A stretch of DNA of 64,000 nt from Escherichia coli (GCF_036507355.1 NZ_AP027877.1); one strand, 5' to 3'. Shown: positions 20,556 to 25,158, counted from the first letter of the stretch. The notes: generated from the letters alone by a model not told the origin. Translations and numbers: made by a program.

Positions 20556-20665
20556 TTGTCCCATCTGTCCCGTTGTCCCATAGATTTTATATATATTGTA
20601 TTTCATATGGTTAGCTTGTTTTTTTATGGGACAAGAATGGGACAAAGCGGGACAGGTTTTTGTCC
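20556..20665. repeat. iteron cluster (3x TGTCCC, AT-rich spacer, 3x GGGACA, 1x TGTCCC); candidate replication origin
   Basis: Hexamer repeats directly seen at 20556, 20565, 20573, 20627, 20638, 20648, 20660 with ~9-11 bp periodicity, immediately downstream of the helicase gene. Confidence 0.6.
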
Positions 20666-20723
20666 CATTGAAGTTTTTTGTTTGAAACACATACAAATTT
20701 GGTTGGTGTAGGTGGGCTGGTCG

Positions 20724-20750
20724 CAAAAAAACACCCGCACAGTGGCGGGC
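20724..20750 (-). terminator. rho-independent terminator after helicase gene
   Basis: minus-strand gcccgc-cactgt-gcgggtg hairpin followed by TTTTTTT. Confidence 0.6.
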
Positions 20751-20758
20751 ATTGGTTC

Positions 20759-22465
20759 TCAATCTTCGAGGCTGTCACGATGGATTATGTAACATCTGAC
20801 GCGACCCAAACCGGGCAGATATCGACGATCTGGTTTGGTGATACCCTTCGCCTGTAAAACGCTGGCAGCTCGTCTGGCATCAAGTCCGGCAAAAATCACT
20901 TTCCAGCCTTCAACCGGGATAATGTACTCGTCATCTTTAATAAACCCAACTCGCGCCGTCGGTATCTCATCTGGTTTATTAGCGTCCTGAAAACGCGCCC
21001 CGTCACGCACTATGGTTTGTCTGATACGCTCGACGATCTCATTATCTTCATGGCTTTCCGTACCTCCTCTACGCTCAATCCATGCGGTAAAGCAGACTTT
21101 CGCCGCTTCTGTCGCAGTTCCCGGACTCCAACCCGTTATCTCAGAAGACAGTTCGCCAGCATAGGCCGCTATGGCGAACTTCTCAGCAACACGCCCGATC
21201 TGACCGGAAGGGTCTTCAGCTACAGAATTAAGAAAGGCCGATTTAAAATCGCGCCAGCCCTCCTTAATGGTGTCGTAATTGATAGTCAGGTGATCAAGCC
21301 ATGCGTTAAACGCTGTACCGTGATTTTCTCGTACTGCCTTGTCCAGACGGTCAGCAAACAAAGCGCCGTTTGCCTCTCCGTGAATCGTGTCGAAACAGGC
21401 AAATTCGCAGTTATCAGCAGGTATGTTAATCACTCGCATTTCCTGCCCGGCATATGTACTTTTCCGAACCGAATCAGCATGGGATTTGAGATCAATTTCA
21501 CCATTGGATAATAGCGCCAAACACCATTGCTGAATCTCTTTGGCTGTTCCGTTTTTGGTGCTTCGTTGCTTGCCTTTCCCATTCGGAAGCATGTACGCGA
21601 TTTCCCCGGCTTTGCTTGCGTCTACTTGTGCGATTTCATCAAGGCACAGAAGGCCGTCATTATGGCGTGCTGCGATACCTTCCAGCCCGTTATCTGTCGC
21701 ACGCCATGAGCGAATATATTCTTTGGGGTCGGAAATAACAGAAGCGGCAACCGTCATTGACCGGGATTTGCCTGAAGATGATGCCCCTACATAATGGAAG
21801 CAGAATCCATCAACTCCCAGCATGGTGAGCATAGGGGACAGGAACGCAGTAGATACCGCCAGAATCAGACGACTATTACCAACGCACAACGCCGCCACTT
21901 CATCGCGCCATGTCGCCAGGGTGCCGCAGGATGGCTCTGGCTTTACTCGGGCATTAACCTGATAGACAACCATATCTTTATCAATTGGGTTAAATGTCCG
22001 CACCGGGGTCACGTATACGGCAGGTTTAAACCAACCGCAGCGAGTAACGCAGGTTAACCGGCTTTGGTGGGATTGCCCTTTGAGATAACGGATGAACGCC
22101 TTCTCATCCCAGATACGCAGGCCGCCGTTAACCAGAATGCTAATGGCTTCAGCTCCTCCATTTGCGTAAAGTGAAGTCGCAGGCATCGCCCATTTCTTTG
22201 GCATCCCGTCACGGTCACACCATGACAGAAGTTTGCCCCACGACTCGTTATCCTTGTCTCTGGTTTCCGCAGTGACCTCAATAACATCAGATATACAGAC
22301 GGGTGCCGGATTGGGGTTTTTCTCCGTTGGTGCTCTGTAGAAGTAAACGCCAGCATCCCCGCGTTCCCTGTCGTACTCCCGATGTACCCAGTAAAACGGC
22401 GGCAGCTTTTCGGCTGGCGGGTTGTCTTTGTGGACTGATAAATCAATCACGTTGTTCGTGCTCAT
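20759..22465 (-). CDS. replicative helicase (P4 alpha C-terminal / D5-like, Walker A)
   Basis: ORF with Walker A GASSSGKSRSMT; ATG at 22465 overlaps primase stop (ATGA); position after primase as in P4 alpha/PICI pri-rep. Confidence 0.7.
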   Translation of the reverse strand: MSTNNVIDLSVHKDNPPAEKLPPFYWVHREYDRERGDAGVYFYRAPTEKNPNPAPVCISDVIEVTAETRDKDNESWGKLLSWCDRDGMPKKWAMPATSLYANGGAEAISILVNGGLRIWDEKAFIRYLKGQSHQSRLTCVTRCGWFKPAVYVTPVRTFNPIDKDMVVYQVNARVKPEPSCGTLATWRDEVAALCVGNSRLILAVSTAFLSPMLTMLGVDGFCFHYVGASSSGKSRSMTVAASVISDPKEYIRSWRATDNGLEGIAARHNDGLLCLDEIAQVDASKAGEIAYMLPNGKGKQRSTKNGTAKEIQQWCLALLSNGEIDLKSHADSVRKSTYAGQEMRVINIPADNCEFACFDTIHGEANGALFADRLDKAVRENHGTAFNAWLDHLTINYDTIKEGWRDFKSAFLNSVAEDPSGQIGRVAEKFAIAAYAGELSSEITGWSPGTATEAAKVCFTAWIERRGGTESHEDNEIVERIRQTIVRDGARFQDANKPDEIPTARVGFIKDDEYIIPVEGWKVIFAGLDARRAASVLQAKGITKPDRRYLPGLGRVRCYIIHRDSLED

Positions 22466-23331
22466 GCCACTGCCTCCCATTTCTTGACCAGTTCATTTTT
22501 GTGATCGTTCCAGTCGCCATGTCTGGACGGGATTAGCAGCTCGCAACGGTAGCGACTTGCCGCATCAATGGCTTTAGTTACTCCCGGGTTGCCATCTGTA
22601 TTCGCATCATTATCGGCGGCAATGATGATGCGGGCGCGTGGAAATTCACTGCGCACACTCTCAGATACCTCTCGCAGGTTTCCGGCAGTAAAGGCGACAC
22701 AGACCGGGCAGCCCGTTACTTCTCGAACGGTGGCGGCGGTGGCATAGCCTTCAGCGATGAAAATGGTTTTGTCATTGACGACTAACCCGCCCAGCCAATA
22801 GCGTCCACCTTTCAATAGTGCGCCAGATTTAAAGCGCTTTGTGCCGTCCGGCATAATGTACTGAATGGACTGTACACTTCCGTACTGATCATGGATTGGA
22901 ATCAGTAACCAGTCACCAGATTGATAAATGCCATGCGCCCCAACACCTTTGCGCAATAGGTAAGGGTGATTATCACTGGCAGGAACTGCGCTACTAATCT
23001 TGGCTCTACATTCGGCAGCGGCGGCAACCTCAGCTTTACGCTGTATCGCTCCAATTGCCCGGCGTGCTTCCATCATCACGCGCTTACGTTCAATGCTGTT
23101 GACCTGTACACCATCGAGAAAGTGACACGCGGTTATGCCAGTTTTCCAGCTACCAAAAGCACAGCCCGCGCCATCAGGGAACGGGTAAGCCCAGCCATTA
23201 AGCGAGCCAGGTTTATCGCCCTCGATACGAAAGCGGGCAACGGTGCCGGGGATTAATTCCGGCAGTTCGCAAGGTATTACGCCAGCCTCGCGCATGGTGT
23301 CAGACAGGGATTGTCTTTGATGTGTAGTCAT
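22462..23331 (-). CDS. DNA primase (Toprim domain)
   Basis: Toprim-like motifs (IFIAEGYATAATV, IIIAADNDANTDGNPG); ATG at 23331 with AGGAAA SD. Confidence 0.7.
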   Translation of the reverse strand: MTTHQRQSLSDTMREAGVIPCELPELIPGTVARFRIEGDKPGSLNGWAYPFPDGAGCAFGSWKTGITACHFLDGVQVNSIERKRVMMEARRAIGAIQRKAEVAAAAECRAKISSAVPASDNHPYLLRKGVGAHGIYQSGDWLLIPIHDQYGSVQSIQYIMPDGTKRFKSGALLKGGRYWLGGLVVNDKTIFIAEGYATAATVREVTGCPVCVAFTAGNLREVSESVRSEFPRARIIIAADNDANTDGNPGVTKAIDAASRYRCELLIPSRHGDWNDHKNELVKKWEAVA

Positions 23332-24030: not shown

Positions 24031-24112
24031 TTGGTATACCTCGCTCAACGCACTGCCACTCAGTGCTACGACAGCAAAGATAAAGGCATCCAGTGGCAGA
24101 TATAATGCGCAG

Positions 24113-24150
24113 CAAAGTAGGTCTTCACTTTCAAAGTAGGTCTTCACTTT
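24113..24150. promoter_or_regulatory. tandem 19-bp direct repeat upstream of alpA (candidate operator)
   Basis: caaagtaggtcttcacttt repeated twice back-to-back, directly seen; overlaps stop of upstream 283-aa gene. Confidence 0.5.
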
Positions 24151-24995
24151 TGTGAGAATGTTTCAGGGAACCATTCTTGTAGTTGCTGCCTAAGTTTTTG
24201 GCATCTAGAATCATCTTTAATATTGATATCTATACCTTCCTTTGCGGCATACCTTTTTATCGCTTCAATTGTTGCGTCCAGAGTGATGGAGCCGCGTACC
24301 CCCTTACATTCTTCAATCTCATGCTTCAGAACGTATTCAGCTACCTTGCGGCGATTGGCGTGTATCTGAGCGTATCGGATAGTTCGCCCGTCGGTATTGT
24401 CACCAATCGTTTTTAGTGCCTGTTTTGCCTGTGCCGCTTCATAAACTCGCTCAATGTCTTCGGCAGACAGGAACGTTTCATTCATAGAAATAACAAGCGA
24501 GTTATCACCAGTAAAAGTGATGTCCAAACTCCCAACCCCATCAGGACGTTCGTCTATAGCCTCCAGATAATTATTAATGGTGTCCTTGTTTAACCTTATC
24601 GGCTCATTTGGCCTTATAGGAAAAGATGACGGTATGGCCCAGTAACCAGAAGCAATGCCAGTACACCAGAAACAATCTTCCTCAGTGGAAATATGGAAAT
24701 CGGTGCTGACTTTTGAAAGCTCAAGCCCTAACGGGTGAGGTCGATTTTTCGTGGCGCATCCCATATATAGCGCCTCGGCAATTTCTTTCGCATTGTTTTG
24801 GATTAACTCCCGGGAAAGAAAGCCTCCAAATGAACAAGGCTCGCCATTGAGGAGAGCATACAGATGGATCCGGCGCTCTTGATGGTAAGCAACCAACGTA
24901 GTAGGACTTACACCCAACAGCTCGCTTGCCTCAGCTATAGATACTGGCCCATCAGGTCTAACCCTTTTCTTTTTTTCCCAGATTGAAGCGCGCAT
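24144..24995 (-). CDS. hypothetical HTH-domain protein (283 aa)
   Basis: N-terminal helix-turn-helix-like segment SIAEASELLGVSPTTLVAYHQ; remainder unrecognised; sits between int and alpA. Confidence 0.55.
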   Translation of the reverse strand: MRASIWEKKKRVRPDGPVSIAEASELLGVSPTTLVAYHQERRIHLYALLNGEPCSFGGFLSRELIQNNAKEIAEALYMGCATKNRPHPLGLELSKVSTDFHISTEEDCFWCTGIASGYWAIPSSFPIRPNEPIRLNKDTINNYLEAIDERPDGVGSLDITFTGDNSLVISMNETFLSAEDIERVYEAAQAKQALKTIGDNTDGRTIRYAQIHANRRKVAEYVLKHEIEECKGVRGSITLDATIEAIKRYAAKEGIDINIKDDSRCQKLRQQLQEWFPETFSQK

Positions 24996-25049
24996 TTTTC
25001 ACCCTGCCTGTCTTTTATTTGTTCGATTGATGTTCGGGCCAGAAATTTT

Positions 25050-25158
25050 TGTCCCGTCCTGTCCCGTCTTTTGTCCCGGTTTTGTCCCATAACCATTCTT
25101 GTAACCAGCTGTATTTATTGAGTCTTTACAAAACGGGACAAACGGGACAGATGGGACA
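25050..25158. repeat. second iteron cluster (4x TGTCCC, ~45-bp spacer, 3x GGGACA); crr-like site or operator
   Basis: Hexamers at 25050, 25060, 25072, 25083, 25135, 25144, 25153; same hexamer and architecture as 20556..20665, ~4.5 kb away. Confidence 0.55.

Follow-up and report, generated by a model that had tools for sequence, protein, structure and literature searches.

Paired inverted iteron arrays bracket the replication operon of an Escherichia coli yicC island: a candidate two-site variant of the SaPI/PICI-type origin

A 64,000-nt stretch of the Escherichia coli chromosome (GCF_036507355.1, NZ_AP027877.1; hereafter the window, meaning the whole stretch analysed) carries an island inserted at the 3' end of yicC, and the replication operon of this island is bracketed by two clusters of the hexamer TGTCCC/GGGACA, cluster 1 on the 3' side of a gene encoding a DUF927 helicase and cluster 2 beside the integrase gene (int). 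It is almost certain that the clusters are iteron arrays with a common specificity that belong to the island's primase/helicase replicon, and we favour, with modest confidence, a reading in which both consist of iterons for the helicase as replication initiator (Rep) and together form a two-part replication origin that brackets the operon. As judged by sequence comparison, the replicon belongs by descent with the Rep helicases of Staphylococcus aureus pathogenicity islands (SaPIs), phage-inducible chromosomal islands (PICIs) and staphylococcal cassette chromosome (SCC) elements, and by layout it resembles the origin (ori) and cis replication region (crr) of P4. The description that suits the feature best is a SaPI/PICI-type origin in a recurrent two-site form.

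The hexamer was counted in both orientations over the whole window and compared with shuffled sequence. The enrichment anticipated by the original prediction, a reading of the window that had first pointed out the two clusters, is not seen in the total number, which is ordinary (28 copies against 22 ± 4.5 in shuffles), but lies in the clustering, which is extreme: 14 of the 28 copies are packed into 220 bp, seven in each cluster (20557-20666 and 25050-25158), for which the background rate of 0.024 copies per 110 bp gives a Poisson P of ~1e-15 each. No other hexamer reaches seven or more copies within 140 bp anywhere across the 64 kb. On the shuffle counts, the Poisson values, this hexamer scan and the Markov shuffles of related elements given below, chance clustering was rejected.

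Mapping of the individual copies bore out the coordinates and architecture originally predicted, namely three to four TGTCCC, a ~45-bp spacer and three GGGACA in two clusters ~4.5 kb apart. Cluster 1 has TGTCCC at 20557, 20566 and 20574, with an extra copy at 20661, and GGGACA at 20628, 20639 and 20649; its 48-bp spacer (20580-20627) is 83% AT, in agreement with the AT-richness proposed for it. Cluster 2 has TGTCCC at 25050, 25060, 25072 and 25083 and GGGACA at 25135, 25144 and 25153, around a 46-bp spacer of 70% AT. Repeats follow one another at 8-12 bp in both clusters, and YTGTCCCRT is their extended consensus. Cluster 1 stands on the 3' side of the helicase gene, 92 bp from the stop codon (20759-20761) and past a terminator-like hairpin at 20730-20753, whilst cluster 2 lies between int, whose stop codon (25182-25184) is 23 bp away, and a gene for a 283-amino-acid MerR-like helix-turn-helix (HTH) protein (24144-24995), which begins 55 bp downstream of the cluster.

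A feature absent from the original prediction is that the two clusters are inverted copies of one another. At the outer ends the inverted match is perfect over 25 nt (20550-20574/25141-25165), and the inner arms agree too, giving a second inverted match of 23 nt with 87% complementarity (20624-20646/25070-25092), with diverged spacers between. Within a site, 52-54 bp separate one arm from the other, and this holds for the window as it does for the betaproteobacterial sites described below. Among E. coli variants of the island the hexamers are invariant and the linkers and spacers variable, and one variant is shorter by exactly one repeat unit.

In order to place the helicase, a profile built from it and its relatives was compared with solved structures, of which two were matched, SaPIbov1 Rep (8tch, 3e-28) and Cch of SCCmec (5dgk, 2e-22), whilst BLASTP detected no similarity between the helicase and P4 alpha (E = 0.2). 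A model of the last 144 residues of the helicase, with a predicted local distance difference test (pLDDT) score of 92.9, has a bundle of helices and, after it, a helix-turn-helix with a beta-hairpin; the structure closest to it in fold is again 8tch (probability 1.00), followed, weakly, by winged-helix regulators and Cdc6/Orc1. In SaPIs the C-terminal winged-helix domain of Rep recognises iterons of 5-6 bp which sit immediately 3' of rep and flank an AT-rich region, with Rep probably bound as two hexamers (PMC7581432, PMC9371898), and E. coli PICIs share this type of origin organisation (PMC6092414).

The distribution of such arrays was then assessed in 83 evaluable loci with related helicases (35-95% identity), taking as a helicase-proximal array any hexamer cluster of at least five copies lying from -200 to +700 bp of the helicase stop codon, and as a second site any cluster formed by the same hexamer at a distance of over 800 bp, with first-order Markov shuffles as the control. 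A helicase-proximal array was present in 71 of the 83 loci, built from repeats that vary around GGnnACA (e.g. GGGACA, GGGAACA, GGTAACA, GGCTACA and GGGGACA). A second cluster of the same hexamer was found in 15 of these 71 (shuffles: mean 0.04, maximum 1), in all cases inverted relative to the first, and the two-site elements are distributed over at least three helicase clades. The second cluster begins 27-83 bp past the int stop codon in eight elements (the window, L002, L041, L069, L078, L079, L082 and L084), and L031 is similar, although its sites are 10.8 kb apart. The repeat of each betaproteobacterial two-site element is specific to that element (TCGGGACA, TGGGGCA, TCGGGGCA, TTGGGACA, GTGGGGAC) yet identical at both of its sites, which form inverted repeats of 147-195 bp around the replication module with 84-97% identity, flanks included. 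Two-site elements also have smaller helicase-proximal arrays, with a median of 6 repeats over ~110 bp against 10.5 over ~220 bp in one-site elements (Mann-Whitney p = 4e-7; L005-L084). A search of IMG/VR for close relatives of the helicase found none.

Two relatives, both 44% identical, are ambiguous cases: L003 (4089-4198, 5942-6048) and L004 (8092-8200, 13896-14001) carry clusters of GGACAC or TGGACA at the start and end of the helicase open reading frame (ORF), mostly within coding sequence, or ~4 kb downstream. In the near-identical islands of E. coli PI24 (L090, 2560-2690) and Shimwellia pseudoproteus (L005, 3912-4020) the spacer of the helicase-proximal site is homologous to the int-proximal spacer of the window, and this site has four GGGACA where cluster 1 of the window has three. 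The int-proximal spacer of L002, in turn, has a 15-nt stretch in common with cluster 1 of the window. Since spacer types are thus swapped in PI24, Shimwellia and L002, the two sites appear to exchange sequence, by gene conversion or double inversion.

Several of these elements bear on which protein reads the repeats. L002 has a helicase 80% identical to that of the window and a different integration site, and it carries GGGACA iterons at both positions. The proteins shared between L002 and the window are limited to the helicase (71% identical in the C-terminal domain), the primase (79%) and a 167-amino-acid protein, p167 (51%); L002 lacks the MerR-like gene and any detectable AlpA homologue, and its integrase reaches only 23% identity. 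In the E. coli variants L087 and L088 the MerR-like gene has been replaced and every hexamer kept. The helicase is the sole island replication or regulatory protein detected in every two-site relative examined, int being detected in most of them at only 23-42% identity. Two Aeromonas elements, L019 and L014, have helicase cores that are 97% identical, C-terminal domains that are 55% identical, and iterons of GGTAAC and GGCTAC respectively, the only clean case of a C-terminal domain swap accompanied by a change of iteron. Taken together, the conservation in L002, the retention of hexamers in L087 and L088, the constancy of the helicase as partner, the Aeromonas swap and the invariance of the hexamers point to the helicase C-terminal domain as the likely iteron reader, as in SaPIs. 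Arm-type sites of the integrase were considered and rejected, the clusters lying 1.4 and 2.0 kb from the attachment (att) core and the same iterons standing beside an integrase of only 23% identity.

From the architecture, position and conservation of the repeats, their matching from site to site and the homology of the helicase, we infer an origin that would depend on Rep binding, melting, looping and the presence of both sites in cis. The island's own Rep, a DUF927 protein, would bind both arrays through its C-terminal winged-helix-like domain. At cluster 1, Rep would assemble and melt the spacer, after which the neighbouring Toprim primase would prime; because this spacer is 83% AT, cluster 1 is the probable principal melting site in this particular island. 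Cluster 2 would serve as a second site for Rep loading or binding and as the synaptic partner of cluster 1, the two being paired, probably, by looping out of the intervening 4.4 kb, as proposed for P4 ori and crr. The number of iterons per site is about that expected for one hexamer, so that the pair would do the job of the single double-length origin of one-site relatives. The proximal arrays of two-site elements being half-size, the second site therefore looks like one half of a divided origin and not like an addition to a complete one.

A more far-reaching version of this reading, which we hold to be doubtful and put forward tentatively, is that, lineage after lineage, the usual origin of double length (~10-13 iterons with two Rep hexamers bound) has been split into inverted halves of ~6-7 iterons. 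The halves would flank the replication operon, one of them immediately past int, each would load one hexamer, and initiation would need their synapsis by looping. If true, origin firing would be coupled either with the element's topology or with the transcription that crosses the rep operon between the halves, and the same logic would explain the need of P4 for both ori and crr.

A number of observations weigh against a two-part origin. Most relatives have a single, rep-proximal site. The betaproteobacterial pairs have spacers that are not AT-rich and sites that are nearly identical, neither being marked as the melting site, and across two-site elements the helicase-proximal site is not consistently more AT-rich than the int-proximal one. 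The helicase-proximal sites of PI24 and Shimwellia have the less AT-rich spacer of the cluster 2 type, such that the 83% AT of the window is not a fixed property. As to the reader, helicases that use GGGACA did not have closer C-terminal domains when these domains were compared among the relatives, and p167 and the primase, which are also conserved between the window and L002, are possible repeat readers in that clade. In addition, cluster 2 may be dispensable or even inhibitory, since most relatives are one-site elements and a rep-proximal ori is enough in SaPIs and in EcCICFT073.

In the main rival reading, cluster 1 alone would be the origin. Cluster 2 would bind Rep as an operator or control element where the rep operon begins, much as such arrays do in P1 and F, and would repress the operon, titrate Rep or handcuff the origin without being needed for initiation. 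We consider this somewhat unlikely, although sequence alone does not separate it from a two-part origin. Cluster 2 does lie at the 5' end of the Rep-encoding operon in every int-adjacent case, and arrays of the same iteron on both flanks of rep, serving copy-number control, are the classical arrangement of plasmids such as P1 and F. The predominance of relatives with only one, rep-proximal site and the sufficiency of such an ori in SaPIs and EcCICFT073 (PMC6092414, PMC7581432) are likewise in its favour. Half-size proximal arrays, however, fit an origin function shared between the sites and not a control array added to a complete origin, and the identity of 84-97% over 147-195 bp in the betaproteobacterial sites extends into the flanks and exceeds what an operator needs. 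No sigma-70-like promoter was detected in, beside or around cluster 2, nor around cluster 1, in a scan that is uninformative by itself.

That the clusters are instead operators for a different DNA-binding product of the island, be it the AlpA-like protein, the MerR-like protein or p167, which would co-regulate the replication and cargo operons, is in our view improbable. An operator for AlpA or the HTH protein had been offered originally as the alternative for cluster 2, and it is now disfavoured. Cluster 1 and cluster 2 do each have a gene start 55-60 bp downstream (20497 and 24995, respectively), two HTH proteins are among the island's products, and p167 is conserved in L002, but L002 keeps its iterons at both sites in the absence of the MerR-like gene and of any detectable AlpA homologue, and L087 and L088 keep theirs though the MerR-like gene has been replaced. 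Many of the 71 relatives with a rep-proximal array have no detectable homologue of the window's regulators, the helicase being the constant partner, and with the clusters mutually inverted a promoter-operator unit would point the wrong way in one of them.

Very improbable is a role of the inverted repeats as recombination substrates or as ends of a mobile module (cassette ends, or inversion sites for the replication genes), for which the perfect 25-nt repeat at the outer ends, the spacer types traded between positions and a report of yicC-specific islands in which the DUF927 region is inverted with respect to int (PMC7449626) could be cited, but in which case one has to set aside that NCBIfam and PHROG scans found no transposase or invertase between or beside the repeats, that int and the helicase gene are co-oriented in every two-site locus where both were detected, that the internal structure is one of iterons at 8-12 bp, of the same kind as the single origins of one-site relatives, and that sequence exchange is expected of any long inverted repeat without recombination being its function.

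Returning to the two-part origin, its helicase-proximal half has the appearance, in sequence, of a textbook SaPI/PICI-type origin, with opposed iterons around an AT-rich spacer placed directly 3' of rep behind a terminator; two traits of a SaPI/PICI Rep-ori module were found, namely a Rep-homologous helicase with its C-terminal domain and opposed iterons round an AT-rich region directly 3' of its gene. The likeness to the Rep-ori of SaPIbov1 and SaPI1 and the pri-rep-ori of EcCICFT073 extends to the homologous DUF927 helicase and the primase gene just upstream of it, and that to Gram-negative PICIs to the succession of int, alpA, pri, rep and ori in one direction of transcription. Unlike these elements, the island repeats the array in inverted form between int and the operon, at a distance of 4.5 kb, its arrays are half the length of those in one-site relatives, and it measures 8.1 kb where PICIs measure 10-20 kb. 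In the literature that we searched, no second inverted iteron array was described in SaPI/PICI-type or DUF927 elements, though the search was limited and does not prove novelty. Because no packaging, capsid-size or phage-interference genes were recognised in the island (PHROG, NCBIfam and PADLOC) and it has no alpha-type protein, it cannot be filed as either a PICI or a P4-like satellite.

Arrays of the same iteron flank rep in the plasmids P1 (incC and incA, around repA) and F (incB and incC, around repE), and R6K has its gamma origin together with alpha and beta; in iteron plasmids such arrays interact by initiator-mediated pairing or looping. The island differs from these plasmids in that their RepA-type winged-helix initiators recruit the host DnaB and are not self-loading helicases, and in that the arrays of these plasmids are not related to each other by inversion.

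The original prediction had likened the two clusters to P4 ori and crr. In P4, crr is needed in cis alongside ori, and looping between the two has been proposed; to our knowledge, the distance requirement of crr relative to ori has never been explained mechanistically. A literature search on the mechanism of crr returned nothing useful, and the comparison made here uses the annotation of the P4 genome (X51522). There the alpha terminator is followed at once by crr; ori is ~4.8 kb distant, on the upstream side of the alpha operon, with the Vis/AlpA-like ORF88 as its neighbour. The island and P4 thus share a plan, until now known chiefly from P4, in which a single repeat forms two arrays separated by 4.5-5 kb, the first directly following the primase/helicase gene and its terminator and the second preceding the operon, next to an AlpA/Vis-like gene. 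In each array direct and inverted copies are mixed at about one helical turn (++--+ in P4 crr and ---+-- in P4 ori, the latter being the same 3-1-2 pattern as in the betaproteobacterial two-site elements), and in both systems the initiator is a helicase with a C-terminal winged-helix domain (PMC2777425).

They differ in that primase and helicase are fused in alpha and encoded by separate Toprim and DUF927 genes in the island, in the repeat (a hexamer or nonamer in the island, TGTTCACC in P4), and in that the island's sites are mutually inverted whereas P4 crr is a tandem duplication of 120 bp. Neither sid, delta nor psu was recognised among the island ORFs, where PHROG matches were limited to int, AlpA, the primase and the helicase (no cos search was made), and an Rfam scan of the island for a P4-like CI/C4 RNA gave no match. 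On these comparisons the P4 analogy is right on architecture, where layout and repeat patterns match X51522, and wrong on family, the initiator being a homologue of SaPIbov1 Rep and Cch with a separate primase and no detectable similarity to alpha; for cluster 1, originally likened to a P4 site, the closest known origin type is the SaPI/PICI ori. The suggestion that the repeat marks a distinct specificity group adds little, GGGACA-type iterons being common across this helicase family.

A conserved pair of HTH and DUF927 genes, whose role was called elusive, has been reported in mobilizable islands integrated at yicC (MGIVflInd1, MGIVmi1 and MGIVchHai6-like; PMC7449626). The present island resembles MGIVflInd1 and MGIVmi1 in its integration at the yicC 3' end (26598-26638) and in having the HTH plus DUF927 pair, and differs from them in its Toprim primase. 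No mobI is annotated in the RefSeq records of the island and no mobI/oriT module was recognised in it.

The island was found, with at least 80% of the query covered, in 15 of 5426 complete E. coli genomes. Along the direction of transcription its order is int, cluster 2, the MerR-like HTH gene, the AlpA-like HTH gene, the 167-amino-acid ORF, the Toprim primase, the DUF927 helicase, the terminator, cluster 1 and small cargo ORFs (Table 1). The MerR-like gene is swapped for unrelated genes in L002, L087 and L088. No family match was obtained for p167, nor any match for the cargo ORFs, in the PHROG, NCBIfam and PADLOC scans. A perfect 19-bp tandem duplication (CAAAGTAGGTCTTCACTTT x2) occupies 24113-24150, at the 3' end of the MerR-like gene and upstream of the AlpA-like gene, and could be a regulator binding site or the product of recent slippage. 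Elsewhere in the window, the low GC content (31-37%) of 39000-44200 belongs to the waa/rfa cluster for lipopolysaccharide core biosynthesis, with a galactosyltransferase, RfaY, RfaL and RfaC, which is ordinary chromosomal sequence unrelated to the clusters.

Table 1. Features of the island in the window and paired sites in betaproteobacterial relatives. Positions are those of the window unless a locus is named; aa, amino acids.
Feature	Position	Strand	Basis
Cluster 1, helicase-proximal iteron array, proposed origin with unwinding element	20557..20666	.	Hexamer count; position as SaPI/PICI ori (PMC6092414, PMC9371898); equivalent array in 71/83 relatives
Cluster 2, int-proximal iteron array, proposed partner site of the origin	25050..25158	.	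Hexamer count; invariant hexamers; position also filled in L002 and 6 proteobacterial relatives
Integrated island, 8.1 kb, between dinD and yicC, all genes on the minus strand	18504..26638	-	Both junctions by alignment to the empty K-12 site, common core TTCTGAATCTG
att repeat, dinD side, copy of the yicC 3' end, core TTCTGAATCTG at 18493-18503	18463..18503	.	Direct-repeat family D2; junction alignment
att repeat overlapping the yicC 3' end	26598..26638	.	Direct repeat, junction alignment; yicC by TIGR00255 at 1e-138
Tyrosine integrase, P4 type, arm-binding N-terminal domain	25182..26441	-	NCBIfam PRK09692 1e-36; PHROG 1 1e-71; RefSeq annotation
283-aa protein, weak N-terminal MerR-type HTH, first gene after cluster 2	24144..24995	-	Pfam MerR 2.9e-4, residues 19-43; MerR-family regulator annotation in strain PI24
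AlpA-like HTH protein, 57 aa as annotated, longest ORF to 24147	23857..24030	-	PHROG 66, 597, 2790 (excisionase/regulator); RefSeq: helix-turn-helix transcriptional regulator or AlpA-family protein
167-aa ORF (p167), 159 aa as annotated	23399..23902	-	51% identical in L002, 98% in Shimwellia
Toprim-domain primase	22462..23388	-	PHROG 2249 DNA primase 1e-52; RefSeq toprim domain-containing protein
DUF927 replication-initiator helicase (Rep), C-terminal winged-helix-like domain	20759..22480	-	Pfam DUF927 1.8e-75; PDB 8tch 3e-28; 5dgk 2e-22
Intrinsic-terminator-like hairpin with T run, directly 3' of the helicase gene	20730..20753	-	Kept in L002, L005 and E. coli variants
151-aa cargo ORF, first gene past cluster 1; more small ORFs down to ~18648	20042..20497	-	ORF call
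Betaproteobacterial site pairs	L041 1816-1905 / 7763-7852; L079 4956-5045 / 9782-9871; also L078, L069, L031, L046	inverted	Pattern of 3 direct, 1 inverted, 2 direct; inner gap 54 bp

Replication of SaPIs, PICIs and SCC elements by their self-loading Rep helicases is generally taken to begin at one rep-adjacent origin. The matched, inverted second array and the half-size sites found in the window and in at least 14 relatives from three helicase clades point to a recurrent two-site origin organisation, and the one-site, two-site and swapped-spacer relatives make up a natural comparative series for the question of the distant second site. In addition, the iteron evidence suggests a role in replication initiation for the DUF927 genes of mobilizable islands integrated at yicC and trmE (PMC7449626).

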